Below are positions 12,059-48,776 of a stretch of DNA of 64,000 nucleotides, one piece after another. Source of the DNA: Candidatus Pacearchaeota archaeon (lineage in GTDB: Archaea; Nanobdellota; Nanobdellia; Pacearchaeales; GW2011-AR1). The position numbers were made by a program, and so were the translations under genes. The notes below the pieces were generated by a model, which saw nothing but the letters and a program-made list of their open reading frames with translations, ran no database searches and was not told where the DNA came from. Every line of letters begins with the position of its first letter. Position 1 is the first letter of the stretch. The stretch covers positions 27,611-91,610 of the forward strand of contig JAGVXG010000009.1 of the NCBI GenBank assembly GCA_018303885.1, in the 5' to 3' direction.

Positions 12059-12369
12059 TTTTTATAATCAGCTTTTTGCATTATTTCGTTAAATCTTGCT
12101 CTGTAATCTTCAATTTCATTAATCAAACGGAGAACAACGGCAGAATATCTATTGGAAAAATCCAAGCAAGACCAATTATGCCTATGGGCTTCATCACATG
12201 TAATGCTTACTGTTTCTGTAGTCCTTGGATCTAAATCAAAGGCTTGTTTTATTTCATGTAAAGCTTGGTCACTTAAAACTTTTCCATCTAAAAATTGTTC
12301 TTTCCATTTTCCAAAACGTTCATCTGTTATTTTTTCTATATCTAATTTCTTTCCAGTCATTTTTTTCAC
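12055..12369 (-). CDS. hypothetical protein (101-104 aa) coupled to radA
   Basis: ORF wedged between radA and the NTase gene. Either a GTG start overlaps the radA stop, or an ATG at 12360 lies 5 nt after it. No motif recognised. Confidence 0.5.
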
Positions 12370-14852
12370 TCTAACTCATCAACAACGCCGGCATCAGAAA
12401 CATTAAATACAATTTCATTTTCCGGTAAATTCGGCGAATCAATCAGTTTGGCTACACGGCTCCCTGCCTTACCTCGACGCAAATAGATACGGTATGTGGA
12501 ATTGTGAACTATAAATCCATTAGCAACATAATTTTCTCTTTCTGGGACAGAAAAATCATATAAAAATTCTTCATTATTTGGTTTAATGTTTATTTCTCTT
12601 ATTTTCTCAAATTTTATTTGACCATTTAACAGTTTTTCAATGAAGCCAATCTTTTGTTTAATTTGCCTATCTTTAATCTCAGTATTAATTAATTTTCTAA
12701 AGGCAAACTCGAGCTCTTTTTTGCTTACCCATTCATAGTTTTCTGGCCTTGCTTTTATTGCTTTTGTAAATCTAATTCCACAGAATTCAAGGAGCTCTCT
12801 CAATTCTTTTCTTCTAACGGGCATCATTTCATATGAATAAGTTTCCAGAACTTTTGCAACCTTTTCTATGAAAATCTTTTGTTTATCTTTTGCAGTAAAT
12901 CCAATTTGTATGTAATCTTTAATATCTTTATCAATAATCCTTAAAACATTCATTTTCTTTCTTCCGATGCCAAATTTAATGGTGCTTCTTACCCCTAATC
13001 TTAACAAAAAAAGCTGTAAATATATCAATATTTTTTCTTTTTTTTGGACCGCGCTTATGTAAGCTCTTCTCTTATTAATGTGACCTTCAGCATCAAAAAA
13101 GCCCCGAATAAAGGCGCTGACGACTTCGTTCTTGGACTTTCCTACATAATTGTAAATTTCTGGTAAAAGCAAAGCAAATAAATCGCTTATTTCTTTAGAA
13201 TTAATACTCAAATCATAGCAGTTTTTTTCATTAATTTTTGATATTTTTCCATATATGTTGAATGTCTGTTTAAATAAAGAGTTATAATGTTGCAGCACTT
13301 CTTCTCTTGCATCTCTAAATCTTAAACCACTTTTCTCTAAATTACCGTCTCCTATAAAATAACCGAACATTTGTGCAAAAGAAGGTGTAAAAAATTCAGG
13401 AACCATTAAATCTCTATGCTTATGGCTTATCACTGGAATTACCTGCAAAATCTGGTTTCCTGTGTAGGATTGAATATTGTCTAAAACCTCAATAGAAGTT
13501 GGCCACTCCTGATTCAGTACCCTTCTTAATTGTCTTTGGTTAATTCCAATCTTTTCGCATAACTTTTTTCTTGTAATTTTATTTTCTTCTAGTTTTTTCT
13601 TAATTGTTTCTGAGTCTTCTTTGCTTAATTTTCCAATTTTTCTGATTTTAAAATCGGGAATTCTTATTTCTTCTCCTTCAATATCTATTCTTCCTGTTTG
13701 AGCCACAAAACTCCCTACATGCAGGTTTTTGGCTTCTTTTTCAACAACTGAAAAGTTCTCAATGCTAAAGAATCTATGTAATCCCGAGCAGTTTATCTGT
13801 AAATTAGTTTTTATATTATAAATTTCTTTAACATTTGGATTGGTGAAAACTTTTTCAGAATCGTTCTTAGATGTATTCATTTCAAAAAAATCGGCTGAAA
13901 TGACTTTATCACTATTTATTTGGCTTATTTCTTTTATACTTCCATCTGACAATTGTATCAGACTGTCCCCTGTTAAACAGGCATGTCCAAGTATGTGCCC
14001 ACCAATTGGCGTAGTTGGATCTCCAAACATCTGAGCAGGATTAGCCATTACCTGATTAGTAACATACACTGCTAAATTGTATGTCTCTGCGATTTTCATT
14101 AATTGATGGATGTACCTATTTAGTTTCTGCTGTCTGTCTGCTAGTTGTCCGCGTCCGGAAAATTCTGCTCTAAAGTGTGCTGTCAGGGAATCAATAATAA
14201 GTAATTTTATTGGCTCTCCTGCTTTAATCATCTCTGCAATCTTGTCGAGAAGAAGAATTTGATGGTCGGAATTAAAGGCGCGAGCAACAAAAATATTTTT
14301 AAGAACTTTCTCCGGATTCAAGCCAAGTTTTTCTGCAATCTGTTTTATTCTTGAAGGCCTGAAAGTTCCTTCTGTGTCTATGAAGACGCATTTTCCATTC
14401 GCGCCTCCCATATCCAAAGGAAGCTGTGTGTTGACTGCCAAAGTCAATCCAACTTGTGTTTTACCGCTACCATATGCGCCGAAGGCTTCTGTAATAGACC
14501 TGCTTTCAACCCCCCTCCCACCAAGAAGACCATCGAGATTCTTGCTCCCTGTTTTTATATAAAGAATATTTTCTCTTCTTTTCGCATATTCTGTTCCATC
14601 AACAAAGCCAAGATCAAGCATTTTTCTTGCGGCCTGAATTGCTTTTCTGGCAACAGCAGGACTCACGCCAGCACTGTCTCCTAAGTCAGAAGGAGTCATG
14701 ACAGCAATAGTCATAAGATCGTAGATTCCAGCAGCCTCGAGCTTCGCAGAAACCGCAGGGCCTATTCCCGGCAAGTCAGTCAGCTTCAGCTCCTTTTTTA
14801 CATCATCAACAATATCAGAAATATCTTCTTCATCTTTTTTATCCTTCGTCAT
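12366..14852 (-). CDS. radA: DNA repair and recombination protein RadA, interrupted by an intein
   Basis: HhH N-domain [19 protein letters not shown], Walker [10 protein letters not shown], Walker [16 protein letters not shown] is followed by the intein, then [13 protein letters not shown]. Confidence 0.95.
12501..13979 (-). mobile_element. RadA intein (493 aa) with LAGLIDADG homing endonuclease domain
   Basis: Starts CLTGDSLIQ (Cys1, codon at 13979-13977) and ends FIVHN (Asn codon at 12503-12501), followed by Ser+1. LAGLIDADG motifs [10 protein letters not shown] and [11 protein letters not shown]. The exteins rejoin as [15 protein letters not shown], which is the canonical RadA sequence. 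Confidence 0.9.
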
Positions 14853-17774: not shown

Positions 17775-18614
17775 ATGATTGAAATGATATTTTTGTTTTC
17801 TCTTGCGCTAATTTGGATAGTTTTTGCAGTTGTCCAAGATTTGAGAAAAAGAGAGGTAGCAAACTGGCTTAATTTTTCTCTTATTGTCTTTGCTCTTGGC
17901 TTCAGGTTTTTTTATTCATTATTCTCATTAAATGGCTTTGGGTTTTTTTATCAGGGTCTTCTTGGGCTGCTAATCTTCCTTTTATTGGGAAATTTGCTTT
18001 ACTATAGCAAGGTTTTTGCCGGCGGAGATGCTAAATTAATGATTGCTCTTGGAACTGTTTTGCCTTTTTCTCAAAGTTTCCTTACCAATCTTAAATTTTT
18101 CTCTGTTTTCTTTATTTTGTTTCTTTTTGTTGGTGCTGCATACAGCCTTGCCGGCAGCATGGTTCTTAGTCTAAGGAATTTCCAAAAATTTAAAAAAGAG
18201 TTTTCCAATCAAATAAAGAAAAATAAGAAATTTATTATTCCTGTTCTTCTTTCCGCAATAGTGCTTATGGCTCTCGGATTTTTAGAAATCCTTTTTTTGT
18301 TTATAGGTGTTTTAGTTTTTATTCTTCCTTATCTGTATGTTTATGCTAAAGCAGTCGATGAATCTTGCATGATAAAAAAAGTAAAAACTAGCGAGCTAAC
18401 AGAAGGAGATTGGCTTTACAAAAATGTTCGTGTTGGCCGAAATATCATAAAAGCGTCATGGGATGGGCTTAGAAAAGAAGACATCAGCCAATTAAAGAAA
18501 AAGCATAAATTTGTTTTAATAAGAATGGGTATTCCTTTCTCTCCTGCCTTTTTAATTAGCTTTCTGATTCTGGTTTATCTTTGGAAAACCAATTTGTGGG
18601 GTTTTTTGTTTTAG
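17775..18614 (+). CDS. A24-family class III signal peptidase (prepilin/preflagellin peptidase, PibD/FlaK-like)
   Basis: Polytopic membrane protein carrying both catalytic Asp motifs: VQDLRKREVANW and FAGGDAKLMIALG. Confidence 0.8.
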   Translation: MIEMIFLFSLALIWIVFAVVQDLRKREVANWLNFSLIVFALGFRFFYSLFSLNGFGFFYQGLLGLLIFLLLGNLLYYSKVFAGGDAKLMIALGTVLPFSQSFLTNLKFFSVFFILFLFVGAAYSLAGSMVLSLRNFQKFKKEFSNQIKKNKKFIIPVLLSAIVLMALGFLEILFLFIGVLVFILPYLYVYAKAVDESCMIKKVKTSELTEGDWLYKNVRVGRNIIKASWDGLRKEDISQLKKKHKFVLIRMGIPFSPAFLISFLILVYLWKTNLWGFLF

Positions 18615-18637: not shown

Positions 18638-18973
18638 CTAAACCAATTTAACAAATTCGGATTTAACTTTTTCAAAAGTTTCTTTATTGATTCTTCCTAC
18701 TTTTTTATTAACAATATTTTGACTTATAGTAAAAAGTTTATCAACTTTTATCCTGCTCAGTCTAGGAACTCCACCTTCGACTAAGTTTTTATTATCAAAT
18801 AAAACAGAATGTTTTGAATCCTTTAAATTGGATGTTATACCACAAGTTATCACATCTTCAGAACTCTCATTATCTACATTTTTGGATAATATCAGGACAG
18901 GTCTTTGTTTTATGCTACTCAAATCAGAAAAAGGAAAAGGAACAACAACTATTTCGCCTTGTCTATACATCAT
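18638..18973 (-). CDS. mazF: MazF/PemK-family type II toxin
   Basis: GEIVVVPFPFSDLSSIKQRPVLILS is the PemK/MazF N-terminal signature. The likely start is at 18973 or 18970, overlapping the antitoxin stop (ATGATGTATAG). The ORF track extends to 19015. Confidence 0.75.
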   Translation of the reverse strand: MMYRQGEIVVVPFPFSDLSSIKQRPVLILSKNVDNESSEDVITCGITSNLKDSKHSVLFDNKNLVEGGVPRLSRIKVDKLFTISQNIVNKKVGRINKETFEKVKSEFVKLV

Positions 18974-19196
18974 TCCAAACCTCATCTTCTTTATTATCCC
19001 AAAGTTTCTTAGCAACCTTTTCAGAATGCTTTAATAAATAGCTAAAATCTTCCTTTTTTACTTTTTTTATAACAATCGCATCTTCGTTTTTTGTGATGAA
19101 AAGCTCGTCTCCGCGTTTAATCTTTAAAGAATCCCTTATTCCTACCGGTAAAGAAATTTGCCCTTTATCTGTTACTTTAATTATTTTAGTCTCCAT
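18963..19196 (-). CDS. mazE: AbrB/MazE/SpoVT-family antitoxin
   Basis: 77 aa. The swapped-hairpin motif KVTDKGQISLPVGIRDSLKIKRGDELF sits upstream of, and overlaps, the toxin gene. Confidence 0.75.
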   Translation of the reverse strand: METKIIKVTDKGQISLPVGIRDSLKIKRGDELFITKNEDAIVIKKVKKEDFSYLLKHSEKVAKKLWDNKEDEVWNDV

Positions 19197-19381
19197 AGAA
19201 AAGTAAGAATTTCCTTACTTATAAATTTTTCGCTGTTTCACTTCGTCCTTCTCTTTCCGCCATGCCTGTAAGGATGTTTTTTTCTTTCTTTTCTCTTATC
19301 CTTACCTTTGTTGCGTCTTCCAGGAAAAACATAATCTGACATGATTCAATTAAGAAAGCATTATTTAAAAAATTTAAGGGT

Positions 19382-19813
19382 TCAAGGTGCAGGGGGGGTT
19401 TCGGTAGCACATGTTATCGCAGAACAGATTTCTACTCCATAATTTCTTCCGGTATATTTTCCACCAGAAGCCAATTTTTCACAAGTAGTATCTGCGTCTT
19501 TAATCTTTGGATTTGTTCCATCATTAACTTCTCTTTGAACAGTACAATAATCATACTTTGCTCCAGTTGTACACGCTGTTTCGCAAGCAGTTACTATATT
19601 TTGAACATTATTTGACTTTACAAATGGAAAAATCTTGTTCCATCCAACAGTAAATCCTAATATCAAAATAACAAGAACAACGAGCCCAAGGATAATCAAA
19701 ATAATAGCATTAACACTTAAACCTTGTCCTTTAATGTCTTTAGGTAAAAAATCACCTCTTTTCTTTTGCATATGAAATTGAGGGTTATTTTGTTTAAAAA
19801 TGTTTTTGTTCAT
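19382..19813 (-). CDS. prepilin-like protein with Cys-rich ectodomain (143 aa)
   Basis: Class III signal peptide-like KGQG|LSVNAIILIILGLVVLVILILGF. The C-terminal domain has about 7 Cys. Confidence 0.6.
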   Translation of the reverse strand: MNKNIFKQNNPQFHMQKKRGDFLPKDIKGQGLSVNAIILIILGLVVLVILILGFTVGWNKIFPFVKSNNVQNIVTACETACTTGAKYDYCTVQREVNDGTNPKIKDADTTCEKLASGGKYTGRNYGVEICSAITCATETPPAP

Positions 19814-19818
19814 AGTGT

Positions 19819-20118
19819 TTATGGGATGTTGTATCTGACTCTTATTCCTTCTTGTTCTAATAGAAGATGTTTTCCGAGCCCATCTGATGGCTTAACCTCG
19901 AAGATTTCATTTATTTCCTCTTCGCTAAACTCAAGGCTTTCCTTGTAAAAAGATATTTTCTCCCCTATGACTGCTGCTTTTTCAACCAGTTCAATATCAA
20001 AGCCCTTCTTTGCATCTCTGTCTGAGATATAGAAACTCACAATTGCCAAAATACATATTGCAACAACCCCCATTACTAGAATCGTTACAGGAATGTCTCC
20101 GCGTTTGTTTTTTGTCAT
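19819..20118 (-). CDS. prepilin-like protein (99 aa)
   Basis: MTKNKRG|DIPVTILVMGVVAICILAIVSF. Tightly packed in the operon. Confidence 0.6.
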   Translation of the reverse strand: MTKNKRGDIPVTILVMGVVAICILAIVSFYISDRDAKKGFDIELVEKAAVIGEKISFYKESLEFSEEEINEIFEVKPSDGLGKHLLLEQEGIRVRYNIP

Positions 20119-20119
20119 G

Positions 20120-20680
20120 TTATTTACCGATTAAATTTAGTTCTAAATTTCTTTTGTCATCTAACATAATCTTTTCATCAGCAAAAGGTACTGTATGGTA
20201 ACCTAATTCGGTATTTCTATCTCCGGCGACTCTTTTGCCAAAATAGTTATTTTCAATAGAGTTAAATATACAAAATTGTGGCTCTGGGGCACATGGCTTT
20301 CCATTAGCATTTTCTTCCGTGTTTATAACAAATCCTAACCATATATTGTTGGGATTATTTAAGTAATCTTTTTGAAAAAGTCCTCGGAAAACCTTCAGGG
20401 CAAGGTTTCCATTGAAATAATTAAGATTTTCTTCTTCCTTAAGCTGTTGATAAACTAACTTTCCGCTAGCATCTTTAGTTACTGTATAAGAAAAAAGGGA
20501 TTTTGATGCTAAGGTATCTACTGATTTAAAATAATTAGATTTCAAATCTTTTTCGTTGTGAAAAAAGGCAGACGCCGCAAAAATCGAAACAGCAAGAACA
20601 ACAACTATAACAACAGTTGCAACTAGCCAGGTTATCGTATCACCCGTTTGCGCTTTTTTATTTTTAACAAGTTCCCGCAT
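20120..20680 (-). CDS. prepilin-like protein (186 aa)
   Basis: KKAQTG|DTITWLVATVVIVVVLAVSIFA N-terminus. 1-nt gap to the downstream gene. Confidence 0.6.
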   Translation of the reverse strand: MRELVKNKKAQTGDTITWLVATVVIVVVLAVSIFAASAFFHNEKDLKSNYFKSVDTLASKSLFSYTVTKDASGKLVYQQLKEEENLNYFNGNLALKVFRGLFQKDYLNNPNNIWLGFVINTEENANGKPCAPEPQFCIFNSIENNYFGKRVAGDRNTELGYHTVPFADEKIMLDDKRNLELNLIGK

Positions 20681-21182
20681 TTTTTTCTGTCTTTCTTACA
20701 ATAGAAAGTATATTTACTTGATATTGTGTATTTTTTCTATCAATAACATAAAGGCTTCTTTTTAGACAGAAAGGGAGGCTTTCTCCTTTATCTGCACAAA
20801 AAATTTTTAAATTGGAATTTCCTGCGGATATTTCAGGAATTTTTTTTCCATTGGGAGGATTAAAATCAAGAATTTCTATTTCAACATAATACTGTCCCTG
20901 TTCCTTCCAGCCGCAAGCATCTTCAACTTCAAAATTCAAGTTACATTGTTCAAGAAGGTTTTCATTAAAGCCTTCTATTAAAACTTCTTCTCGTAAATAT
21001 CCTGTTTGAGAAACACAATCTGCAACTCTGTTTGTCAAAGCATTTGCCTCCAATTCTCGTATGTCATATGGCTTTCCATAAAAAGAAAAAACCATGTAAA
21101 CAATTGCAGCAGCCACTATGAAAAGTATCACAAACCAATACACCGAAATTATCTTATCTCCGCCGGTTTTATTCATTGTCAT
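20664..21182 (-). CDS. prepilin-like protein (172 aa)
   Basis: MTMNKTGG|DKIISVYWFVILFIVAAAIVYMVF. Cys-containing ectodomain. Overlaps the next gene by 17 nt. Confidence 0.55.
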   Translation of the reverse strand: MTMNKTGGDKIISVYWFVILFIVAAAIVYMVFSFYGKPYDIRELEANALTNRVADCVSQTGYLREEVLIEGFNENLLEQCNLNFEVEDACGWKEQGQYYVEIEILDFNPPNGKKIPEISAGNSNLKIFCADKGESLPFCLKRSLYVIDRKNTQYQVNILSIVRKTEKNAGTC

Positions 21183-21183
21183 T

Positions 21184-21585
21184 TTATTCTATGAAAAAAT
21201 AAAATTCTTTTTTGTTTTCAGTAAGCTTGGGGGTTGCCTTAACTCCATTAAAAAAACTGTACGAATACCCTCCTTTTTCCCTAAGTTTAACTGTAACAAC
21301 ATTATTCTCAATAGTTACAATTTCACCAACAGGCCAGTTTTCTTTTTCTGCTTTGCTGATGGCATTTTCCATATTAAGATAAATCGTCATTCCTGGTTTC
21401 GCAGAATCTATAACAAGAGCTATTTGTTTTGCATATCTTTCCTCAAGAACAGCAGCGCTTCCCATTTTTAAAAATAAAAATAAAACCAAGGTTGATAAGA
21501 ACACAAGATTAAGAATAATAAAAATAAGGTTTTCCATCAAAATGGTCCCTTTTTTTCCTATATTTTTTGGCTTGGTTAGTTTCAT
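21184..21585 (-). CDS. prepilin-like protein (133 aa)
   Basis: NIGKKG|TILMENLIFIILNLVFLSTLVLFLFL. Confidence 0.55.
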   Translation of the reverse strand: MKLTKPKNIGKKGTILMENLIFIILNLVFLSTLVLFLFLKMGSAAVLEERYAKQIALVIDSAKPGMTIYLNMENAISKAEKENWPVGEIVTIENNVVTVKLREKGGYSYSFFNGVKATPKLTENKKEFYFFIE

Positions 21586-21586
21586 T

Positions 21587-22357
21587 TTATGCCTTTGTTA
21601 TGAACTCTCCTTCATCAAGACGAGAAGAAGTTTCAGAGGTTGGGATTATGTAAACCTTAAAAATAATATCTGAATCAATGGGATTATCATCTATTCCTGT
21701 AATAATAGAGTATTTTTCATTTGTCATAATCTTATCGTTATTAACATTTATTTTAAACTGGGAGTTTACTATCACAAAATTTACATCATTAACCCCATAC
21801 AAATAATTAAGATAACTCTGAGAACTTTGCTTTTGGGTTTTTCTTAGATAATCATAAAATTCGGCGTATGTTATTTCTGGGTATTTTTTCTGGATTTTTT
21901 CATCAAATTCAACCACAGAGCAAATAGCATATTTTATAGTTGAACTTCCAATTTCTCCGTAATTTACTTTTCCCTCGCCAAACATATACCAGCAATCAGC
22001 CATTTCTTTTGCAACGGCTTCTATAATTTCATTTTCACTGTCTTTATTGTTTAGATTTACTTCTACCTTAGATGCAGAAGCCAAGTTTTCACAATCATCT
22101 CCTCCAGAAATACAAAGGTAGTTTGTCCTGCAGTCTAGAGGCCCTCCTGATGTCGCTCTTAAAACAAGATTTCCTCTTAACACAACAGAATTATGGCAGA
22201 TTTCTTTGTTTGACTGCTCTCCGGGATTCAATCTAAAAATAAGGAAGAGTATAATGATAAAACTTACAATAAGCACTATGATTGTTACAAGTTGAGTCGT
22301 TGTTAATTCCCCTTTTTTATTTTCCATTATTTTTACCATGTTTCTACATAACTCCAA
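21587..22357 (-). CDS. prepilin-like protein (about 246-256 aa)
   Basis: MENKKG|ELTTTQLVTIIVLIVSFIIILFLIF. The probable true start is Met11 at 22327. Cys-containing ectodomain. Confidence 0.55.
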   Translation of the reverse strand: MELCRNMVKIMENKKGELTTTQLVTIIVLIVSFIIILFLIFRLNPGEQSNKEICHNSVVLRGNLVLRATSGGPLDCRTNYLCISGGDDCENLASASKVEVNLNNKDSENEIIEAVAKEMADCWYMFGEGKVNYGEIGSSTIKYAICSVVEFDEKIQKKYPEITYAEFYDYLRKTQKQSSQSYLNYLYGVNDVNFVIVNSQFKINVNNDKIMTNEKYSIITGIDDNPIDSDIIFKVYIIPTSETSSRLDEGEFITKA

Positions 22358-22454
22358 GTTTTTTTAAAAGCAAGTAAATTCCTGCTAAAGCTAACCCAAA
22401 AATCACTGCCCAAGTTAAATATTTTATTAATACTTCTATGTTTTCATTTTCCAT
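22347..22454 (-). CDS. possible 35-aa single-TM peptide
   Basis: My translation: MENENIEVLIKYLTWAVIFGLALAGIYLLLKKLGVM. It starts 9 nt after the upstream gene's stop. Too short for certainty. Confidence 0.3.
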
Positions 22455-22463
22455 GTTTATTTT

Positions 22464-22985
22464 TTATGCTTTTGAAATCATTTTATTTTGATAATCTATT
22501 TTAAGATTCAAAGGCGGTTCTATTGGTATTGGCTGTTGCTGAATGCCGTCTTTTCTGACAGTAAGTTGTTTTGAATTTTCCATGCAAATTCCATTATCAT
22601 CTGAATTTTCCAAAAACTTTTCTCTTACATTTCCCGTAAATGGTAAAGTTGACCATAACTGGCTTCCTAAACTAACATCTTTTACTATACAAACGCAACC
22701 ATCCCACCCAAGATTAGAGCAAGACCTTGGAAGTTTTCCTTCATTTTGATAAGGCCAAGATAAGATAACCCATCCTTTAGGATTGTAAATATCAACACTA
22801 GTTTTTTCAGCATTTATCTCCTGTTCAAGAAAATTCAGGGATTCTTTCGCTAGTTCAAGGTCTTTCGAGTCCTTTCCAGCTTTGTAAAGTGAAAAAAGAA
22901 GAAAAACCAAAAATCCTATAGCAATAACAGCAAGTATCACCTTCAACGTTTCTTCGGCAAGTAAAAAACCTCTTTTTGATTTCAT
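22464..22985 (-). CDS. prepilin-like protein with bacterial-style G|FxLxE N-terminus (173 aa)
   Basis: MKSKRG|FLLAEETLKVILAVIAIGFLVFLLF. Phe at +1 and Glu at +5, as in bacterial type IV pilins. Confidence 0.65.
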   Translation of the reverse strand: MKSKRGFLLAEETLKVILAVIAIGFLVFLLFSLYKAGKDSKDLELAKESLNFLEQEINAEKTSVDIYNPKGWVILSWPYQNEGKLPRSCSNLGWDGCVCIVKDVSLGSQLWSTLPFTGNVREKFLENSDDNGICMENSKQLTVRKDGIQQQPIPIEPPLNLKIDYQNKMISKA

Positions 22986-22987
22986 TT

Positions 22988-23161
22988 TTATTTTAATAAG
23001 CTTAAAATCAACTCAGGCGCGTCTTTTGGTTTATCAGGAACAAGATTATTAAAAAAGTCTATTAAATCTTCTTTAAAGAAAAAATAAATGCCAAGGACAA
23101 CGACAACAAACACGAGAACTCCGATGATTATTTTAATCAGGTTTTCTATTGTTAGTTCCAT
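22988..23161 (-). CDS. possible 57-aa single-TM protein in the pilus operon
   Basis: My translation: MELTIENLIKIIIGVLVFVVVVLGIYFFFKEDLIDFFNNLVPDKPKDAPELILSLLK. Its stop lies 2 nt before the next ATG. Confidence 0.4.
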   Translation of the reverse strand: MELTIENLIKIIIGVLVFVVVVLGIYFFFKEDLIDFFNNLVPDKPKDAPELILSLLK

Positions 23162-23194
23162 TTTATTTTAGTTCAGTATACCTTTTCCTCTGTT

Positions 23195-23347
23195 TCATCT
23201 AAACAAGTCTTTTATTTTGTCTATTAAAATTACTCCTTTCCCTTGTAAAATAAAAACCGTAATCATTAAAATCACAAGAACCGCAACCGCTATCAAAATC
23301 CATGGAAGATACTCAGAAATAATACCCCTTACGTCTCTTTTCTTCAT
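23195..23347 (-). CDS. possible 50-aa prepilin-like peptide
   Basis: My translation: MKKRDVRG|IISEYLPWILIAVAVLVILMITVFILQGKGVILIDKIKDLFR. Confidence 0.45.
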   Translation of the reverse strand: MKKRDVRGIISEYLPWILIAVAVLVILMITVFILQGKGVILIDKIKDLFR

Positions 23348-23386
23348 AAGTAAGAAAAAATAAAACAAATTAATAAACTTAACTCT

Positions 23387-25564
23387 TCAAGCCAGATTTC
23401 CAAGCACAATACTTGTTAAAATAAACAATGCCAATGTAGCTGCTAAAGAAGTTATAAAGTAAAGCATTATACTTTTTGTAAGGTTTTTCCCTGTTTTATT
23501 TGTTCTTTCAAGCTTATCTTCTCCAGAGTCTATTGCAACTAAAGCGCGTGTTAAAATGAAGACTATCTGTACAAGATAAATGCCAATTATAATCTGAAGG
23601 AAGTAAGGAGGAATCATCTTAGCAACCTCGAATATATCCGAGATTGTTCCAATATTTCCGAAGCCGGCAGCAGCCTCGCCTTGTAGCTCTGGTAAATCAA
23701 GTTTAGTTAAAATAGCAGTTATCATCGCTGCCAAACCAACAACAACGCCTGAAAGCAGCGGCGCTAAGAACGACATATTTGATTTCATGTCAGAAACAAC
23801 TTCTGCAAGCATGTCTCTCAACCTAGAATTTATCTTGTGAATATTTCTCACATATTCAGAAATGCTCATCATGCTTATGGCCGCAACTTGAAGTCCTTTT
23901 TTTGCCGACTCAACAAGAATCCTCATGCTCGTGGCAATCAAATCAGATGGATAATAAATTATGGCGCCTTTTCTGGAATCGAAAATAGCTTTTTCAACGC
24001 TCATTCCCATTTGCCTTATATTGTAATTAACTCTCATGAAAAAATCTTCTGACATCAATCCTTTAGACGACTCTGCGATTTTGCCAAAGGCTATTTCTGG
24101 AGGGACTTCATTGCCAATTCTGTTTCCCAACTGAAACAGCGAATTATTAAATTCCATTTCAAGCTGTCTTGTTCTTTCTCTTTCGACAATCAGCTCTTTT
24201 GTTCGTTCTCTAAAGGATATAGAAAAAAACAGGGCAATTCCAAGAGGAATAAACATGCTCAATATCAAAGCCCCAATTCCAAATGGCCCTGAAACGCCAG
24301 AAGCATCAGAAGTAAAACCAAAGAATTTTTCATCTCCAAAAAACCCAAATCCTAGTTGGGAAAAGGTGTAGTCTTTCTGTAAGCCGATTAATTCTGGAAA
24401 AGACGTATACTGAAAAATAAACGGCAAAAGTCCGAGTATGAAAAAAGGCAAAGTGATTAAAAACGCATTAATGTAAGGCGCTTTACTTTTGTATTTATAA
24501 TAAAGAGGGTTTTTTTCCAGCAAAGATGTTTCTCCATAACCCCCTGGCCTTAAAAAAATTATCTTATCTGTTAAATAAAAGACAAAAAACGGAATTACCA
24601 AATTAAAGAAAATAAAAACATGAACCCATGTTAACAAACCTCCTAACATTGCTGTTGCCAAAGGAAGTAATGCAAGCCCAAGTGTTGGTAATACAACTCC
24701 CAACATGTAAACATTAGTCAACGGACTTTTAACATCATGCGTAAATTTCAACATCTTGTCATAAACCCCATCAAGAACTACTTTCAATGATTTTTCCAAA
24801 GTCAGAATGCGCCTTGAGTTGTCTGGCTCATACAAGCTGCTTTCTATAAGATGGAAGGCTTCTATAAACTCAATAGAATAATCTCTCCATGCCTCTAAAT
24901 AATTATCGAGGCTTTCTTTAATCGTTGAAAACTTTCCTATTTGAACATTGTAAAAAACCTTCTTGAAATCCAATGCCAAAGGATAACTCAAATGTTCTGA
25001 GGCAAACGCGACTGCCCTTTCCAAATTTGACGTATGCCGCATGTAAACAACGATATACAAAATAGCAGGAACCATTTGGCTGGATGCTTTCAGCCGCCAT
25101 TTATTCGCAAGCCTCGCCGGATAATCTTTCATAAAATAAAAAATGAATAAAGAAAGAATAATACAAAGAAAGAAAAATAAAAATGGAAACGAACTTAGGC
25201 TCCCGTTAATTAAAACAACTGCCAAAGAAATAAGCAACCCAATGAAAAAAATACTGAGAAACGATACAACGCTTAGAGTCAGGGGCTGCCATGGTTCTAA
25301 ATCTAAGTGCGCAATATCGAGATGCTTCTTAATTTTTGCCTCATCAGCTGCAGAGACTTTCAGTCTTATGAGATTTCCTAAACTTTTGCACCATCGTTCA
25401 TATCTTGAAATTTCCGGCGCCATCTCTTCTTTAAATTTAATGTAAGATTGGCTATAATCAACTTTAATATTGCCTCTAACGTTAAACGTAGCCATGCGAG
25501 CTTCTATCTTGCTTCCATATTCATTAAGAATATCATCAACCTGTTTTTTTGGCGGTGCTGGCAT
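23387..25564 (-). CDS. polytopic membrane platform protein (FlaJ/TadC/PilC-like, 725 aa)
   Basis: Many TM helices arranged in two clusters separated by cytoplasmic helical domains. It lies immediately downstream of the secretion ATPase, which is the usual position of the platform gene in archaeal type IV pilus loci. The family assignment rests on context. Confidence 0.55.
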   Translation of the reverse strand: MPAPPKKQVDDILNEYGSKIEARMATFNVRGNIKVDYSQSYIKFKEEMAPEISRYERWCKSLGNLIRLKVSAADEAKIKKHLDIAHLDLEPWQPLTLSVVSFLSIFFIGLLISLAVVLINGSLSSFPFLFFFLCIILSLFIFYFMKDYPARLANKWRLKASSQMVPAILYIVVYMRHTSNLERAVAFASEHLSYPLALDFKKVFYNVQIGKFSTIKESLDNYLEAWRDYSIEFIEAFHLIESSLYEPDNSRRILTLEKSLKVVLDGVYDKMLKFTHDVKSPLTNVYMLGVVLPTLGLALLPLATAMLGGLLTWVHVFIFFNLVIPFFVFYLTDKIIFLRPGGYGETSLLEKNPLYYKYKSKAPYINAFLITLPFFILGLLPFIFQYTSFPELIGLQKDYTFSQLGFGFFGDEKFFGFTSDASGVSGPFGIGALILSMFIPLGIALFFSISFRERTKELIVERERTRQLEMEFNNSLFQLGNRIGNEVPPEIAFGKIAESSKGLMSEDFFMRVNYNIRQMGMSVEKAIFDSRKGAIIYYPSDLIATSMRILVESAKKGLQVAAISMMSISEYVRNIHKINSRLRDMLAEVVSDMKSNMSFLAPLLSGVVVGLAAMITAILTKLDLPELQGEAAAGFGNIGTISDIFEVAKMIPPYFLQIIIGIYLVQIVFILTRALVAIDSGEDKLERTNKTGKNLTKSIMLYFITSLAATLALFILTSIVLGNLA

Positions 25565-25754: not shown

Positions 25755-28100
25755 TTACATCTTCCTCTCTTTAATCTCATCATTCAACCACTTCAGCCAA
25801 AGAGGAAAGACTTTTTCGCTCAATGGCAAACCAGCTTCTTGGCGGACTTCATCTGAAATTCTATGAAATGCATGATTGGATTTCGAGCTAAATTCAGCCT
25901 CGAGAATCTTGTAATTGCCCAGTCTTTTTGCAGTATTCACGAGCTCTTCTTTTATCTTTGCTCTTAAAAGAATATTATCCCAGACAGCGTCCCAGTTTCC
26001 AGCCCAGCCCTTCACATTGGAAGCAACATCTTTGATTACTTCTGAGTCTCCGTTAATTAAGTCTTCTGTGGGCTCCAGCTCGTCAGTTTCAACATTATAC
26101 TTAAATAAATCCACGAAGCCTTTCTCTTCTAAAGGATCTTCTTTCCAATGCTTTCTTACCTCGGAAATTTGGACAACTCTTTTCCATGAATGCAGTCCAT
26201 CAGGACTTTTTATTGGATTAGCCACAATAATTATATCTGTTGCCTTGAAGCTCGTTGCAGGAACTTTGAGATCATTTACAACCCTGTCAAAAACTCCATA
26301 AGGCGAAGCGCCATGAATTGTTCCTGCAACAACATTTGCTAACGCGCCAACACGCATTGCTTCATAAAGCGCTTGCGCCTCAACGCTCCTGACTTCTCCA
26401 ATAATCAAACTCGAGTCTCCCAAACGCAAACTTGTTCTTATTCCGTCGTCGGCAGAAACTTCTGTAGATTTTAAAAGCGCACTGCGCACTTTCATTCTTA
26501 AAATATCATACTTTAATTTTCTTAAAGATTCTACGGGTAACTCGGCTGTGTCTTCTATCACTATAATCCTGTACTTAGGAATTATTTCAAGCATTAGACT
26601 TCCCAAAAGGCTCGTCTTTCCAGAGCTTCTTGTTCCCGCTACGAGCAATGTTCGAGAACCGTCAATCAAAAAACTTAAAACTCCTGCTGCAAGGGGATTT
26701 ATCATCTTATTCTCGACGAACAAAGGCAAAGTCCACGGTTCTTCTCTATGTCTTCTTATAGCATAAGATATTCCATCAGGGCTCAAAGGACGCTGAACAA
26801 TGGCGATTCTTGCCCTGACTCGGCCAAGCTTGGACGAGTCTCCCATTTCAAGTTGTGTATCGAGTATTGGATTTGCTTCGTCAAGAGGCCTTCCTGAAAT
26901 CAATCTGAATTTCGCTGCCCATGAATCAACATCTTCCTGGCTAGGAATTATATTTGTTAAACATTCATCATAAGTTTCATGGCGCACAAAAATAGGAATC
27001 ATTGAAACCGGCGCATTCAATGAAATGTCCTGAAGTCTCTTGTCCTGCAAGAGAACTTCTATTAGCCCAAAGCCAATAGTATGCCTTACGAGAATCGTGG
27101 CAAGCTTATTCAAGTCCTGATAAGAAATATTTACTCCTTTACTCTGCGCAAGATCCTGCAATAGGTCTTTTGAAATATTAAAAAAAACCTGTCTCGTCCT
27201 TTCTGTGTCTGTAAACTCTTCTGCTTTGGGCTGATGCTCTATCAGAACACTCCGCGCAAGATTTAGAAGCATGCCTTGATCTTCATCAAGAATATTTTCA
27301 GGAGGAACAATATGATAAATAAATTTTGGCTCGTCTTTCTTCTTTAGAATTGTCACAAGTGAAACATCGTATTCTTCGCTGGATATTTCATATTGGTCTG
27401 TAATTTCTGCATCCTCTGGCAAATCAGAAATAAGCCTCGTAAAGGTGAAATTAGGGATAACATCTGACCTAAATAGTTTTTCATACACTTCTCTGCTGCC
27501 TTTTCTATAATCTTTCATGTAAGGCGCTGCTTCTCTAAGGAGGCTAGTCTTTTCCATGAGCATCAAGGTCTTTTCAAGCAAGTTTATGTATCCAGACTGG
27601 TCTGTTTTATAAGAAACGGGCATTTTTTCAAGGGCTATTCTTCCTTGTATGATGATTTTTTTTAATTCAAAATGCGCAGCCAAAGGATCTCTTTTAAGAA
27701 AAGAAAGAAAAGAAAAAACTTCATTGTATCTTCCTGGGAAGAACCCATCATGCCCCATAGTTAATTTGTCTCTTGAGAGAATCCTTTCTTGTTGAACAAG
27801 ATAGACATAAAGCTGGGCGATCTCTAAAAGAAAATTTGTTTCCCTGAAATCATAGTTATAATTTTTTTGCTGAACAAAAATAATCCTGGAAACATTAGGA
27901 TTTTCAGTCAGGGCATCGATTGTTTTTTCCATAACATCTGGTGATTCAGAAAGACTCGGGACAAACGGAGCCCCAAGATAATTTATGTAAAGAATGTCTT
28001 CACCGCCTTCACGCTTAACTTCGTAAGAATACAACGGCTTCGTTCCTGGCGTTTCCATCGGCTCTTTTCCCATCAATTCTTTTTCTTCTGCTAACACCAT
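25755..28100 (-). CDS. type II/IV secretion-family ATPase (FlaI/PilB/VirB11-like) with long N-terminal extension (781 aa)
   Basis: Walker A LLVAGTRSSGKTSLLGSL. Asp-box/Walker B RIIVIEDTAELP and LIIGEVRSVEAQALYEAMRVG. His-box GTIHGASPYGVFDRV. About 430 aa precede the ATPase core. Confidence 0.85.
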   Translation of the reverse strand: MVLAEEKELMGKEPMETPGTKPLYSYEVKREGGEDILYINYLGAPFVPSLSESPDVMEKTIDALTENPNVSRIIFVQQKNYNYDFRETNFLLEIAQLYVYLVQQERILSRDKLTMGHDGFFPGRYNEVFSFLSFLKRDPLAAHFELKKIIIQGRIALEKMPVSYKTDQSGYINLLEKTLMLMEKTSLLREAAPYMKDYRKGSREVYEKLFRSDVIPNFTFTRLISDLPEDAEITDQYEISSEEYDVSLVTILKKKDEPKFIYHIVPPENILDEDQGMLLNLARSVLIEHQPKAEEFTDTERTRQVFFNISKDLLQDLAQSKGVNISYQDLNKLATILVRHTIGFGLIEVLLQDKRLQDISLNAPVSMIPIFVRHETYDECLTNIIPSQEDVDSWAAKFRLISGRPLDEANPILDTQLEMGDSSKLGRVRARIAIVQRPLSPDGISYAIRRHREEPWTLPLFVENKMINPLAAGVLSFLIDGSRTLLVAGTRSSGKTSLLGSLMLEIIPKYRIIVIEDTAELPVESLRKLKYDILRMKVRSALLKSTEVSADDGIRTSLRLGDSSLIIGEVRSVEAQALYEAMRVGALANVVAGTIHGASPYGVFDRVVNDLKVPATSFKATDIIIVANPIKSPDGLHSWKRVVQISEVRKHWKEDPLEEKGFVDLFKYNVETDELEPTEDLINGDSEVIKDVASNVKGWAGNWDAVWDNILLRAKIKEELVNTAKRLGNYKILEAEFSSKSNHAFHRISDEVRQEAGLPLSEKVFPLWLKWLNDEIKERKM

Positions 28101-28189
28101 ATAACTAAATAAAAAATCAGGTTAAAATATTTTGTGTTTGTGAGTTATTTTGAAATAGAAATCCACGTTTGAATAATTACGCTCTCTTA

Positions 28190-31063
28190 TTAGGTCAATC
28201 CTCTTTCAGAAATAGTTGAATCGCCACTATTTTCTCCTGTATCACTTCCCGTGTCTCCCAACTCAATAGGAACTTCTTTGCAGAAAGGCAAAAACTTAAA
28301 CCATTTACAAAAAACAGATGTCGTCTTTTTTACACAAGCGCCGTCAGAGCAGCCGTTTGGGCATACCACTCTTTCTGCAGCTTCAAAAGTATCTTTATAA
28401 CAATACAGTTCAACTAAATCTGATCCTTTTGTAACAACAAGGCCTGAGGAGTCAGCACAATAGTCGGTAGTAGAAAATTCATTTCCATAGATATCAAAAC
28501 CATTTAATTTTCCTTTAATATCATAATTCTGACCGCCATCAGAGTCAGTACATGTTGGTGTTTTAGGTGTTTTTATAATGCCACAAATAACTTTTATTGT
28601 TGCAGATGTATCTGATGCAGAAACAAGTTCAATAGTATAAAGTTGTTGGCTATAGGAGTTATATAATAATGACGGATTATCACTGGTTAAAGTAAATAAT
28701 CCTCCTTCAAGTTTGATATTTGCTAATAATTTTAAATTATTTTCATCGGCTTCGGCTAAAGAAATTTCCAAGCCCATAATGTTTTTTGTTTCCAATTCTT
28801 GAAGTTCTACATAATTAAGGTCTCCTTCTTTACAAGCTGGTTTTGGTGTTGAATCTGTTGCACATGCACCATCAGAGCAGCCGTTTGGGCATTCATACTC
28901 TTCTTTAGCAAGATTATTAGTTGTATCACAAGAAAATTCAAATAATGTATTAACTTTGTCTGAAGTTCCGGACCAGTCTTTATGACAAATATCCATTCCA
29001 ACATTAGTGCCAGATGAACTAATAACTGTCGTAATTCCCCCTATATTGTAATTTATTCCACCATCAGAATCCGTGCATTTTGGAGTTTCAATCTGACATA
29101 TACTCGAACAACCATCACCGTTTACAGTATTACCGTCGTCGCATGTTTCTCCACTATCAATAATTCCGTTTCCGCAAACAGGTCCGCCACCCCCAGGGCA
29201 ATCTTGAAAACAACTAGCTGGAGTTTCGCCAGCTTCACAGATACTATTTCCACAAATAGGTCCGATAGCCTGACTTACCCTTAACAATCCACTTTTAGCT
29301 GTTACGTCCTTGTTTTTTGTTGATTGTGCAATGAAATAATATTCTGGATCGCCGGCAAGTCCATCATTTTGCCATTCTGCTACCCAGCTTCCTGTTGCAG
29401 TATTTCCTGAAAATACAACATTGGCTGGATTTACATTTACAGCGTCGTCAGAGCTCGTAGTATCGTCCTCCCAAACCCCAAAAGAAACACTTTGTCCATT
29501 ACAATTATTTCCCTGGACACTTAAGTTTACTGTTTGCCCTTCTGTTGTCTGCGTCGTACTCCACGATGCAGATGTGAAAACACAAGTTGGTTTAGTTATA
29601 TCCTTTATGCAAGCGCCATCAGAACAACCATTTGAACAATAAAAAGCCTCCTGATTCTGAGTATATTCTGTTTGGCTGTTGCAGACTCCCTCAATTAAGA
29701 AATATTTATCAGTACAGTAATCATCAAACTCTTCAACAGTACCATAAGGATTATTCGTGTATGTTAAAGTTCCTTTCACATCGTAATTCAATCCGTCATC
29801 ACTGTCAGTACATGTTGGTTCTGGTTTATCTGGTGTTAGTGGCCTTTGTGTAGTACCCCCAATTGTTTGGCAAGGTGTGTTTGGTTTTGCAAGAAGTGCG
29901 TCAAAATACTCCCAATGTTCTGTAAGAATCCAATAATCATTGTAGTCTATAAGACCTGCCATTATGAATCTACCTCCTTGATCCCAACATACTTTTACAT
30001 CAAGATTTGGATTAGATTTTTTTATCCATTCTGCATCTTGTTGCGCCCACGCATCATTTGTATGGCTTTTTAGTCTAGGTTGTGTAAATGAAAGTGTATT
30101 TGTTATTGGAGCAGTATTTACATCGGGAAAATAATCAAATGGCTCGCTAACTTGTGATGCCATTGCAAAAACCCCAAAATCAGGAATTGTTACTAAAACA
30201 TAAGTTCCTCCAGTTAATGTTTCAGGTGATCTTGTGCCCCAAACATATATTGCGTGATTATCTATTCTATACTGTGAAGTTGCAGTGCTTTTAACTTGAA
30301 CTTCTGTTGTACATTTGCCATCTAAACACCTATTATCTTTGAAAGTGATATAATTAGGAGTTACTGAGAGTTCTCTCCCAGCAGTAGGAAGAAGATCTGC
30401 TGAACTTGTTGTCAAGGAAGCTTTGTTATTCAGAGCCTCAAGTACTTCTGGCGGCCAATTTATTTTTGGAATGTTGGAAGTCCCAGCAACTAAGGATGCC
30501 GGCGCCACTGAAGAAATTTGGCCAGAGGGGGAGATGTATCTAACTATTGCTACTTTGTTTGAAGAGCTCGTTGCATCAGTAGTTTTTGGTTGGATATTTG
30601 TAGCTGGTGTATTATTTACTGGTTTTGGACAATCAACTAAACAAGACGTAGAGCTTTCACCGCTGTTGCAAATTCCATCGCCACAATATGGTCCTTGAAC
30701 ACTAACTGTTTGACATTGTGAAGAACAATAATTACAACTGCTTCCATAATTAGCACCACAAACAATACCATTTCGGCTTCCAGAATCACATTGTTCTCCT
30801 GATTCAACAATTCCATTACCGCAAACTGCCGCAGTTGGTTTAGCAACACATCTTGAAGTATCAAACCTACAGCTAGTGCAACTTAAAGTTCCGCTTGCAA
30901 ATCCAAAATCAACACAAGAAGTTATATCTCCTAATGGATCTTCTCCATCGCATAATTCTCCGGCTTCAAGAATTCCGTTGCCGCAAATTCCCGCAGTTAC
31001 TTTTCCCGTAAATCCTTGCGGTCCGAATAAATCCGAAAACCAGCTAGCGGAAATAAACGTCAA
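28190..31063 (-). CDS. large secreted modular cysteine-rich protein (957 aa), candidate adhesin
   Basis: Five CGNG(I/L)xExGExCD-type repeats. Three modules of about 70 aa each, CTDSDGG.NY...YC...C.NGCSDGAC. No TM anchor. The only in-frame start as assembled is TTG at 31063, so the start is uncertain. Confidence 0.7.
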   Translation of the reverse strand: MTFISASWFSDLFGPQGFTGKVTAGICGNGILEAGELCDGEDPLGDITSCVDFGFASGTLSCTSCRFDTSRCVAKPTAAVCGNGIVESGEQCDSGSRNGIVCGANYGSSCNYCSSQCQTVSVQGPYCGDGICNSGESSTSCLVDCPKPVNNTPATNIQPKTTDATSSSNKVAIVRYISPSGQISSVAPASLVAGTSNIPKINWPPEVLEALNNKASLTTSSADLLPTAGRELSVTPNYITFKDNRCLDGKCTTEVQVKSTATSQYRIDNHAIYVWGTRSPETLTGGTYVLVTIPDFGVFAMASQVSEPFDYFPDVNTAPITNTLSFTQPRLKSHTNDAWAQQDAEWIKKSNPNLDVKVCWDQGGRFIMAGLIDYNDYWILTEHWEYFDALLAKPNTPCQTIGGTTQRPLTPDKPEPTCTDSDDGLNYDVKGTLTYTNNPYGTVEEFDDYCTDKYFLIEGVCNSQTEYTQNQEAFYCSNGCSDGACIKDITKPTCVFTSASWSTTQTTEGQTVNLSVQGNNCNGQSVSFGVWEDDTTSSDDAVNVNPANVVFSGNTATGSWVAEWQNDGLAGDPEYYFIAQSTKNKDVTAKSGLLRVSQAIGPICGNSICEAGETPASCFQDCPGGGGPVCGNGIIDSGETCDDGNTVNGDGCSSICQIETPKCTDSDGGINYNIGGITTVISSSGTNVGMDICHKDWSGTSDKVNTLFEFSCDTTNNLAKEEYECPNGCSDGACATDSTPKPACKEGDLNYVELQELETKNIMGLEISLAEADENNLKLLANIKLEGGLFTLTSDNPSLLYNSYSQQLYTIELVSASDTSATIKVICGIIKTPKTPTCTDSDGGQNYDIKGKLNGFDIYGNEFSTTDYCADSSGLVVTKGSDLVELYCYKDTFEAAERVVCPNGCSDGACVKKTTSVFCKWFKFLPFCKEVPIELGDTGSDTGENSGDSTISERGLT

Positions 31064-31086
31064 AGATAATAAAATAATATTCCTTA

Positions 31087-31107
31087 AATAATAATAATAA
31101 TAATAAT
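31087..31107. repeat. (AAT)7 trinucleotide microsatellite between the TATA-like box and the start of the Cys-rich protein gene
   Basis: aataataataataataataat read directly. An identical (AAT)7 lies at 48728-48748, upstream of another Cys-rich secreted protein gene. Confidence 0.9.
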
Positions 31108-31289
31108 AGCATTTATATATTTTTATGTAAGATTAAAGGCTTTTAAATTTTAATTCAATCACAACAAATTTAACTTAAATCTGGGAATCAATTAACATGT
31201 TTTGCTGAGAGCTCCATTCTTTGTCAGAATGTGATTTAATATAATTCACCCAAAATTTAACAAAGTTGATTCTCTCTTCTTTGTTATCT

Positions 31290-48727: not shown

Positions 48728-48748
48728 AATAATAATAATAATAATAAT
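48728..48748. repeat. (AAT)7 trinucleotide microsatellite abutting the ATG of the secreted protein gene
   Basis: aataataataataataataat read directly. A TATA-like TTTAAA follows at 48754-48759 (48753-48760 with one flanking base each side). Confidence 0.9.
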
Positions 48749-48776
48749 AAGCTTTAAATTTCTTTTGGCTGAAGTT

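Follow-up and report, generated by a model that had tools for sequence, protein, structure and literature searches.

The 64,000-nucleotide stretch of contig JAGVXG010000009.1 of a Candidatus Pacearchaeota archaeon (hereafter the window, to which all coordinates refer) carries at 28190-31063, on the minus strand, an open reading frame (ORF) for a Cys-rich modular protein of 957 amino acids (aa), counted from a TTG codon. This protein, referred to below as the target, is the subject of the analysis. An initial annotation, made from the sequence alone, had described it as a secreted protein built of repeated Cys-rich units at the end of a pilus operon. The ORF is real, and its secreted, Cys-rich and modular character was borne out by the 52 Cys residues of the chain and by the Sec leader found in an intact allele of the gene. 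When counted segment by segment, the number of Cys residues was even throughout, as expected for a fully disulfide-bonded extracellular chain. Rfam and tRNA scans gave nothing relevant near the locus.

Modular architecture of the target

Five short Cys units were located by motif scanning, starting at aa 27, 81, 127, 604 and 630. The initial annotation had counted five units of one kind, resembling those of myxobacterial proteins; the number was right, but only the units at 27, 81 and 630 are of this type (DUF4215/TIGR02232 repeats), while those at 127 and 604 represent a four-Cys unit with the consensus CG[DN][GS]IC..GE....C..DCP. The TIGR02232 model ("Myxococcus cysteine-rich repeat") matched two stretches, the best being aa 629-660, at 47.9 bits (cutoff 20.8), and Pfam DUF4215 (PF13948) reached 25.7 bits, just below its cutoff of 27. 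With at least one repeat above a curated cutoff, the target belongs to the DUF4215/TIGR02232 family.

The chain begins with two DUF4215-like units of six Cys each (aa 27-72, 30848-30985, and aa 81-117, 30713-30823), which make up an N-terminal region common to the related proteins P0002, P0004, P0005 and P0031. They are followed by the first four-Cys unit, CGDGICNSGESSTSCLVDCP (aa 127-146, 30626-30685), and by the Cys-poor central region that the initial annotation had also recognised (aa 147-417, 29813-30625, 4 Cys). The first six-Cys module (aa 418-485, 29609-29812) precedes a two-Cys domain (aa 494-598, 29270-29584), for which we infer a beta-sandwich fold and which recurs in P0002, P0005, P0046, P0066, P0092 and others. 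The second four-Cys unit, CGNSICEAGETPASCFQDCP (aa 604-623, 29195-29254), and the third DUF4215/TIGR02232 repeat (aa 630-656, 29096-29176) come next, and then the second six-Cys module (aa 663-734, 28862-29077), another two-Cys domain (aa 744-827, 28583-28834) common to P0004 and P0131 at 52-53% identity, and the third six-Cys module (aa 838-910, 28334-28552). The C-terminus comprises a Cys-bracketed aromatic-basic motif, CKWFKFLPFC (aa 919-928, 28280-28309), conserved at the C-termini of P0004 and P0131, and an acidic, Gly/Ser-rich tail of 29 aa (28193-28279). All these segments are encoded on the minus strand. Between the small Cys-knotted units lie three Cys-poor domains, including one orphan.

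For this orphan, the central region, no homolog was present among 267 fetched proteins, no Pfam match was obtained at E <= 10, and neither a catalytic motif nor a family match was seen. A search of 5.8 billion proteins gave none either, though the self-match also failed to appear in it. The single-sequence AlphaFold2 model of the region was uninformative, with a predicted local distance difference test score (pLDDT) of 38. When the whole protein was used as the query against the same 5.8 billion proteins, 521 matches were obtained, mostly DUF4215 proteins of Myxococcota, bacteria of the candidate phyla radiation (CPR) and archaea of the DPANN group (named after Diapherotrites, Parvarchaeota, Aenigmarchaeota, Nanoarchaeota and Nanohaloarchaeota); these matches span just 3-33% of the query.

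The target resembles the DUF4215/TIGR02232 proteins in being large, secreted and composed of many repeats, and three of its units fit CGNG-x-x-E-x-GE-x-CD. However, DUF4215 accounts for only a minority of the chain, the bulk of which consists, unlike in those proteins, of the six-Cys module, the orphan domain and the two other shared domains; the family-specific leader and the terminal motifs described below are not part of DUF4215 either.

The three long units, for which an invariant motif had been claimed, do share CTDSD.G.NY ... D.C ... E..C ... C.NGCSDGAC, with 39-45% identity and 24 invariant columns. A profile made from these three copies was run against 1.84 billion cluster representatives and retrieved 3,175 proteins at E <= 1e-3, far beyond chance, of which 861 reached E <= 1e-10 and 60 reached E <= 1e-30; a single protein holds up to 12 copies. 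The fetched proteins contained 522 full-length instances with a median length of 73 aa, and exactly six Cys were counted in 405 of them. In an alignment of 79 module sequences C4, D8, G17, D33, C35, E51, C54, C67, C71 and C76 were invariant. The family, which is unannotated and was defined in the present analysis (CTDSD module), comprises units of about 75 aa with six Cys and the pattern C-x-D-x-D-x-G ... G ... D-x-C ... E-x-x-C ... C-x-x-G-C-x-x-G-x-C; the three copies of the target matched the 79-sequence profile with E values of 5e-20 to 8e-23.

The initial annotation had asked whether the module might correspond to a domain family already annotated, and no match was found in Pfam (E up to 10), NCBIfam or the PDB sequences. 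The structure prediction of a single module, also proposed there, was carried out with AlphaFold2 on the 79-sequence alignment using module 3, and resulted in an all-beta model with a mean pLDDT of 95 and a predicted template modelling (TM) score of 0.82. A Foldseek search with this model returned nothing at E <= 1e-3 from the PDB (best E 1.5, TM scores 0.2-0.3) or BFVD. The top matches were lectin-like (cyanovirin, AB5 B-subunit) and were rejected as not significant. The four conserved acidic residues of the module (D6, D8, D33 and E51) suggest that it may bind metal. A module whose fold is predicted with confidence and has no structural match is a target for domain annotation and structure determination.

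Among nine module-bearing proteins scanned with Pfam three contained S_layer_C, and the other partners of the module were PKD, CARDB, InlB B-repeat, subtilase S8 with FG-GAP, and HExxH protease cores. The target itself has none of the S-layer, PKD or CARDB domains with which the module shares polypeptides elsewhere: Pfam scans found no S-layer domain (e.g. PF05124, S_layer_C), PKD or CARDB in it. Two genomic contexts of module genes were inspected and both were archaeal, with genes for TFIIB, TBP, L37e and S8e nearby. The named cluster members came from Nanoarchaeia and Altiarchaeota and were called only "hypothetical protein" or "cysteine-rich repeat protein"; an additional search with the module alignment added 30 short unnamed proteins that carry no taxonomic or domain information. 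The CTDSD module thus recurs as a common, unannotated component of extracellular proteins of archaea, chiefly those of the DPANN group. We would place the target itself among the modular Cys-rich secreted surface proteins, a known kind, the new part being this abundant, undescribed module; full-text literature searches found no description of the module, or of the leader motif and the C-terminal cassette discussed below.

A second module gene lies in the window itself. The degenerate copy that the initial annotation had placed at 48005-48727 (minus strand) was confirmed with E = 3e-4; the gene encodes a secreted protein of 240 aa that contains a single degenerate CTDSD module and has a C-terminus ending in ...VKEWLGKLFGSIN, and it follows the PolD gene, a position matching that of the relative P0005.

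Export signal, terminal motifs and the window allele

The initial annotation had noted neither a transmembrane (TM) segment nor a sorting signal in the target. No TM segment is present, the highest 19-residue Kyte-Doolittle mean being 1.28. Likewise missing is the C-terminal arrangement of archaeosortase/PGF-CTERM-type proteins, in which a sorting motif precedes a TM helix and a basic tail: the C-terminus is acidic and Gly/Ser-rich, and the NCBIfam scan gave no PGF-CTERM-type match. As for an export signal, the statement is correct for the window allele but not for the gene. The same protein encoded on contig L001 of another assembly (P0001) is 975 aa long and begins at an ATG that is missing from the window allele; its N-terminus, MKKGLVVSLFLFAIILLSLTFISA|SWFSD, is a textbook Sec leader (class I), where the type of the signal peptide and the cleavage site were judged by eye. 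All close relatives of the target carry a signal peptide.

The window and L001 are 99.9% identical over 19 kb and differ by 11 single-nucleotide polymorphisms (SNPs) and one 52-bp indel. The indel is a deletion in the window allele, with its junction at 31079/31080 in the alignment of the two, and takes out GTTGATTAACTAAA (the spacer between the ribosome-binding site and the ATG), the ATG and codons 1-13 of the signal peptide (MKKGLVVSLFLFA). The sole in-frame start remaining is a TTG, from which translation would give MTFISASW..., without n- and h-regions; what is left at 31022-31063 encodes the last part of the signal peptide (..TFISA) and the conserved motif SWFSDLFG that comes after the cleavage site. 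An n-h-c signal peptide starting from the initiator Met is thus present in P0001 and absent in the window allele, and it was because of this deletion that the first reading of the sequence detected no sorting signal.

The window allele is therefore probably null and not exported, unless the deletion is an assembly error. Whether the feature at 28190-31063 is a dead gene or an assembly artefact, its 5'-truncated ORF yielding no functional protein in this strain, appears to us evenly balanced. The loss of the spacer, the ATG and 13 codons, with only the TTG start left, points in this direction, and a protein with 52 Cys retained in the cytoplasm would be unlikely to fold. On the other hand, the remaining 2.9-kb frame is intact and nearly identical to that of the full allele, and the clustered SNPs change the encoded residue in a single codon, which indicates that any inactivation is very recent. 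Moreover, this explanation concerns the allele only and not the nature of the gene.

The target gene holds the single indel and eight of the 11 SNPs by which the window and L001 differ. These eight sit in a 30-nt patch (29105-29134) within the third DUF4215 unit and are synonymous third-position changes apart from the one codon (G/K). The patch looks like a gene-conversion footprint; no donor was found among the sequences compared.

Short aromatic motifs were found at both ends of the related proteins. A motif following the signal peptide is present in 14 of 267 proteins, the target included. Its consensus after the cleavage site, SA|[GSN][WLF]FSDFW.KITGK[AV]T, is conserved in P0001, P0002, P0004, P0005, P0031, P0152, P0173, P0175, P0180, P0212, P0243, P0245, ORFs 3763 of L018 and 2110 of L021, and others, and occurs with unrelated cargo, subtilase, metalloprotease and module-only proteins among them. 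At the other end, the pattern [WF][FWL]xx[LIF][FLW] was detected within the final 25 residues in 20 of 272 related proteins as compared with 1 of 5,440 internal windows. The enrichment of the amphipathic tail at the C-terminus is about 370-fold. This tail is mostly ..GL.QKIL.WFK.LFG-COOH and follows a conserved Cys cassette, C.GC.L..KCYPFGYR..G.YCS...F..Q.....C.NNFEC.SN.C....C[IV]S.GL.QK[IF]L.WFK.LFG(GE), carried by P0130, P0167, P0171-173, P0184, P0185, P0212, P0227, P0243, P0250 and others, and encoded also at 48005-48070 in the window, in the second module gene. In the target KWFKFLPF stands between two Cys residues at aa 919-928. No Pfam or NCBIfam model covers the terminal motifs or the cassette. 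The cassette may serve the secreted proteins of DPANN archaea as a signal for surface retention or sorting, and SWFSDLFG..TGKVT, CKWFKFLPFC and GLMQKILNWFKKLFG are the peptides in which we see putative retention motifs.

The pilus-like operon and the occupancy of the site

The gene next to the target encodes a type IV filament ATPase (T2SSE; FlaI/TadA-like; 25755-28100, minus strand), 71-82% identical to genes of 80 metagenome-assembled genomes of Pacearchaeota, Woesearchaeota and Nanoarchaeota. The initial annotation had put the target directly downstream of this gene, at the end of the operon. The common direction and the 90-bp gap were correct; since both genes are on the minus strand, however, the target lies 5' of the ATPase, i.e. 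upstream of it. The ATPase is the first gene of the pilus-like operon in most relatives. The remaining genes of the operon (19382-25564, minus strand) encode a 725-aa polytopic membrane protein and about ten small pilin-like proteins, in each of which a basic stretch precedes a single N-terminal hydrophobic helix; Pfam and NCBIfam scans gave no family match for the latter. An A24 prepilin peptidase is encoded at 17775-18614 on the plus strand, and it is reasonable to regard the locus downstream of the ATPase as type-IV-pilus-like.

The neighbourhood was compared in species-level relatives, represented by 80 loci. The anchor for the comparison was a divergent 118-aa gene, which 72 of the loci keep. 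In 62 of the 72 the ATPase gene comes directly after this anchor gene with nothing in between, the median gap between the aligned ends being 84 bp. The other anchored relatives contain assorted insertions, some of which encode Cys-rich secreted proteins (L018, L041, L044 and L071), two of these with weak module matches. In L018 and L035 module-bearing ORFs were seen just downstream of the ATPase. Altogether a module gene is present at about 10 of the 80 ATPase loci, a density which, roughly estimated and not computed, does not exceed the window background of 2 per 64 kb.

In the 90-bp gap, after the stop codon of the target, a promoter-like motif, ACAAAATATTTTAACC, lies upstream of the ATPase (28120-28135, minus strand). 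Upstream of the ATPase start in Pacearchaeota and Woesearchaeota (loci L013-L092), the corresponding 16-nt motif, ACAAAATATTTTAAAC, with the palindromic core AAAATATTTT, was found in 60 of 78 loci, 45 of which show no more than one mismatch, and in 0 of 78 control windows. As a promoter consensus for the whole window it was rejected (11 matches at <= 3 mismatches against 5.3 in shuffled sequence). The motif is therefore probably the B recognition element (BRE)/TATA element of the pilus operon, and possibly carries a regulator site in addition.

The target has 5' elements of its own. A TATA-like element, AAAATATATAAATG (31110-31123, minus strand), is conserved upstream of three positional orthologs and is the probable promoter of the target; the orthologs keep a cassette of the form AAAATATATAAATGC-(ATT)n-AAGGA, about 12-16 nt before the ATG, despite their differing upstream neighbours. 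In the window an (ATT)7 microsatellite at 31087-31108 (minus strand) separates the TATA-like element from the AAGGA ribosome-binding-like site. An (ATT)8 repeat at 48726-48750 abuts the start codon of the 48005-48727 gene, and no other (AAT/ATT)n microsatellite of at least 7 copies exists in the 64-kb window; each of the two lies directly 5' of one of the two module-carrying genes, just after a TATA-like box. The copy number between species is 7 versus 6, and the repeat is degenerate in L009. Phase variation by means of (ATT)n found no support, as the copy number was constant in four samples of the L002-type ortholog; that the repeat tunes expression is possible, but likewise unsupported.

The conserved ATPase motif in the gap, the target's own 5' cassette and the empty site elsewhere, taken together, indicate that the target and the ATPase would form two transcription units, the target being a lineage-specific insertion upstream of the promoter-like element of the operon. 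With 62 of 72 relatives lacking the gene and a conserved motif separating it from the ATPase, the target does not behave as a core component of the pilus operon. Conservation beside pilus genes in relatives and joint transcription, by which the initial annotation had proposed to judge its own suggestion of a tip adhesin or secreted substrate, are thus for the most part not borne out, only two close lineages keeping an ortholog there, and this suggestion was not upheld, considering also the class I leader.

The bacterial type IV pilus tip adhesins PilY1 and PilC are large, Sec-exported and encoded with minor pilins. The target could be an adhesin of this sort, exported by Sec, co-expressed with the pilus machinery and docked non-covalently on the minor pilins of the tip. 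It is large, has a Sec signal and lies in the same orientation, 90 bp away, beside type-IV-filament genes; orthologs occupy the identical site in two further lineages, and Cys-rich or module-bearing secreted proteins flank the ATPase immediately in L018, L035, L044, L060 and L071. We consider the pilus adhesin very unlikely nonetheless. The site is empty in most relatives, the target is upstream of the operon's promoter-like element and has its own TATA-like cassette, and the module genes are no denser around the ATPase than the background estimated above. Its leader is not of class III, as that of pilins and minor pilins is, and by inspection the mature protein lacks their hydrophobic helix. 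The beta-propeller family of PilY1/PilC (Neisseria_PilC) gave no Pfam match at E <= 0.01, and there was no sequence match in the PDB. In addition, members of the target family are found elsewhere at unrelated loci: the P0005 gene follows PolD DP2, and the P0002 and P0245 genes lie between FmrO-like and M16 peptidase genes. While adjacency had pointed to a pilus component, the comparison across relatives shows an accessory and rapidly reshuffled gene instead.

Several further observations were made around the operon. A MazE/PemK (MazF) pair is located at 18638-19250 (minus strand), between the last pilin-like gene and the convergent A24 gene, with a counterpart in L001 at 18053-18611. In L002, L003 and L004 (the P0004 lineage) genes for a Bestrophin-like protein (280 aa) and a 171-aa protein stand between the ATPase and a 726-aa membrane protein, from which it follows that the 5' part of the pilus operon tolerates insertions at more than one point. 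The ATPase locus of L017 (DATKUW010000085.1), labelled "Bacillota bacterium", is 80% identical to the archaeal ATPase of the window, and its match coordinates coincide with those of L016, a Nanoarchaeota locus; the contig probably comes from a DPANN archaeon and was mis-binned.

Reshuffling among relatives and the proposed surface role

The close relatives of the target share the leader, SWFSDLFG..TGK(V/I)T and the first DUF4215 units, and differ in their interiors. P0004 (583 aa) has three modules and a C-terminal CKWFKFLPFC as in the target, P0031 (674 aa) has six modules, P0002 and P0005 contain an HExxH metalloprotease core where the target has the orphan domain, and P0245 joins the leader, DUF4215 and the module to a subtilase S8 domain. 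P0004 and P0031 are reshuffled orthologs encoded directly upstream of the ATPase in two close lineages. Identity to L002 amounts to 93% for the ATPase and 92% for the platform protein, and identity to L009 to 88% and 84%, respectively, whereas the target reaches only 49-58% identity over partial stretches and differs in domain content. The target family is fast-evolving, its leader being conserved and its internal domains swapped between close relatives.

In our view the target is, fairly probably, an accessory, independently transcribed, fast-evolving, Sec-exported and disulfide-rich adhesin-like surface protein of a DPANN archaeon of the Pacearchaeota/Woesearchaeota type. After Sec export it would fold oxidatively with about 26 disulfides into an extended stalk at or near the cell surface, where the stalk would present the variable Cys-poor domains to a host cell or a substrate. 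It might be retained there through its short aromatic amphipathic motifs, namely SWFSDLFG behind the cleavage site and CKWFKFLPFC close to the C-terminus. The target would be transcribed on its own and be neither a pilus subunit nor an obligatory partner of the pilus.

DPANN archaea live attached to other cells, and the proteins by which they attach are, to our knowledge, almost entirely unknown. The terminal aromatic motifs and the 5' microsatellites bear on the retention and the regulation of surface proteins in these archaea. Among the variable cell-surface proteins of episymbiotic DPANN archaea are the diversifying surface proteins reported for Nanoarchaeota (PMC6142677). Likened to these by description, the target is also an extracellular repeat protein of a small-genome DPANN host, outpaces the neighbouring genes in evolution and varies at the strain level.

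A number of points weigh against the surface-adhesin interpretation. The adhesin role is one that we infer from the architecture, the retention motifs are putative, and the orphan central domain could be catalytic, metalloprotease cores standing in its place in close relatives. An ortholog kept at the exact site in three lineages and the repeated appearance of genes for other secreted proteins as insertions around the ATPase are both compatible with a functional link to the pilus, and read-through from the target into the ATPase is possible. Finally, the 52-bp deletion could be an assembly artefact.

The metalloprotease cores lead to a different explanation, in which the target is a freely released exo-protein with the orphan domain as catalytic or toxic cargo and the Cys modules as stabilising spacers. 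Besides P0002 and P0005, which combine the same leader and N-terminal units with an HExxH core in the place of the orphan domain, the pairing of leader, DUF4215 and module with subtilase S8 in P0245 speaks for it, as does the lack of a TM segment or known anchor in the target. Since the central region shows no catalytic motif or family match, the partners of the module are mostly domains of surface architecture (S_layer_C, PKD, CARDB), and the conserved terminal aromatic motifs hint at retention, we regard free release as unlikely, and the surface-bound protein is preferred.

A broader proposal is that these genes belong to an undescribed DPANN surface system, combining a six-Cys beta-module of new fold, terminal anchoring of the WFxxLFG type, recruitment to pilus operons and on-off switching by 5' indels and (ATT)n. 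The anchoring signal would be the aromatic amphipathic motif, either after the signal peptide or at the extreme C-terminus, there often behind the conserved Cys cassette; genes would be recruited time and again to the end of the operon nearest its promoter, which would bring variable host-contact proteins and pili into joint action; and switching would come from 5' indels and from the (ATT)n repeats between the TATA box and the start codon. Such a system is, in our estimation, quite unlikely.

Other genes of the window are of less direct relevance. At 44812-46641 (minus strand) an unrelated secreted Cys-rich protein of 609 aa is encoded, with a signal peptide, a DUF5667 match, repeated ..NAPEEC.. 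units and a tail rich in Pro/Gln and Ser/Thr. The assignment of the host draws on RadA with an intein and PolD DP1/DP2 with an intein, and on the ATPase identities given above. The inteins of RadA (828 aa, 12366-14852) and of the PolD large subunit DP2 (1576 aa, 48777-53507) both hold a LAGLIDADG homing-endonuclease domain.

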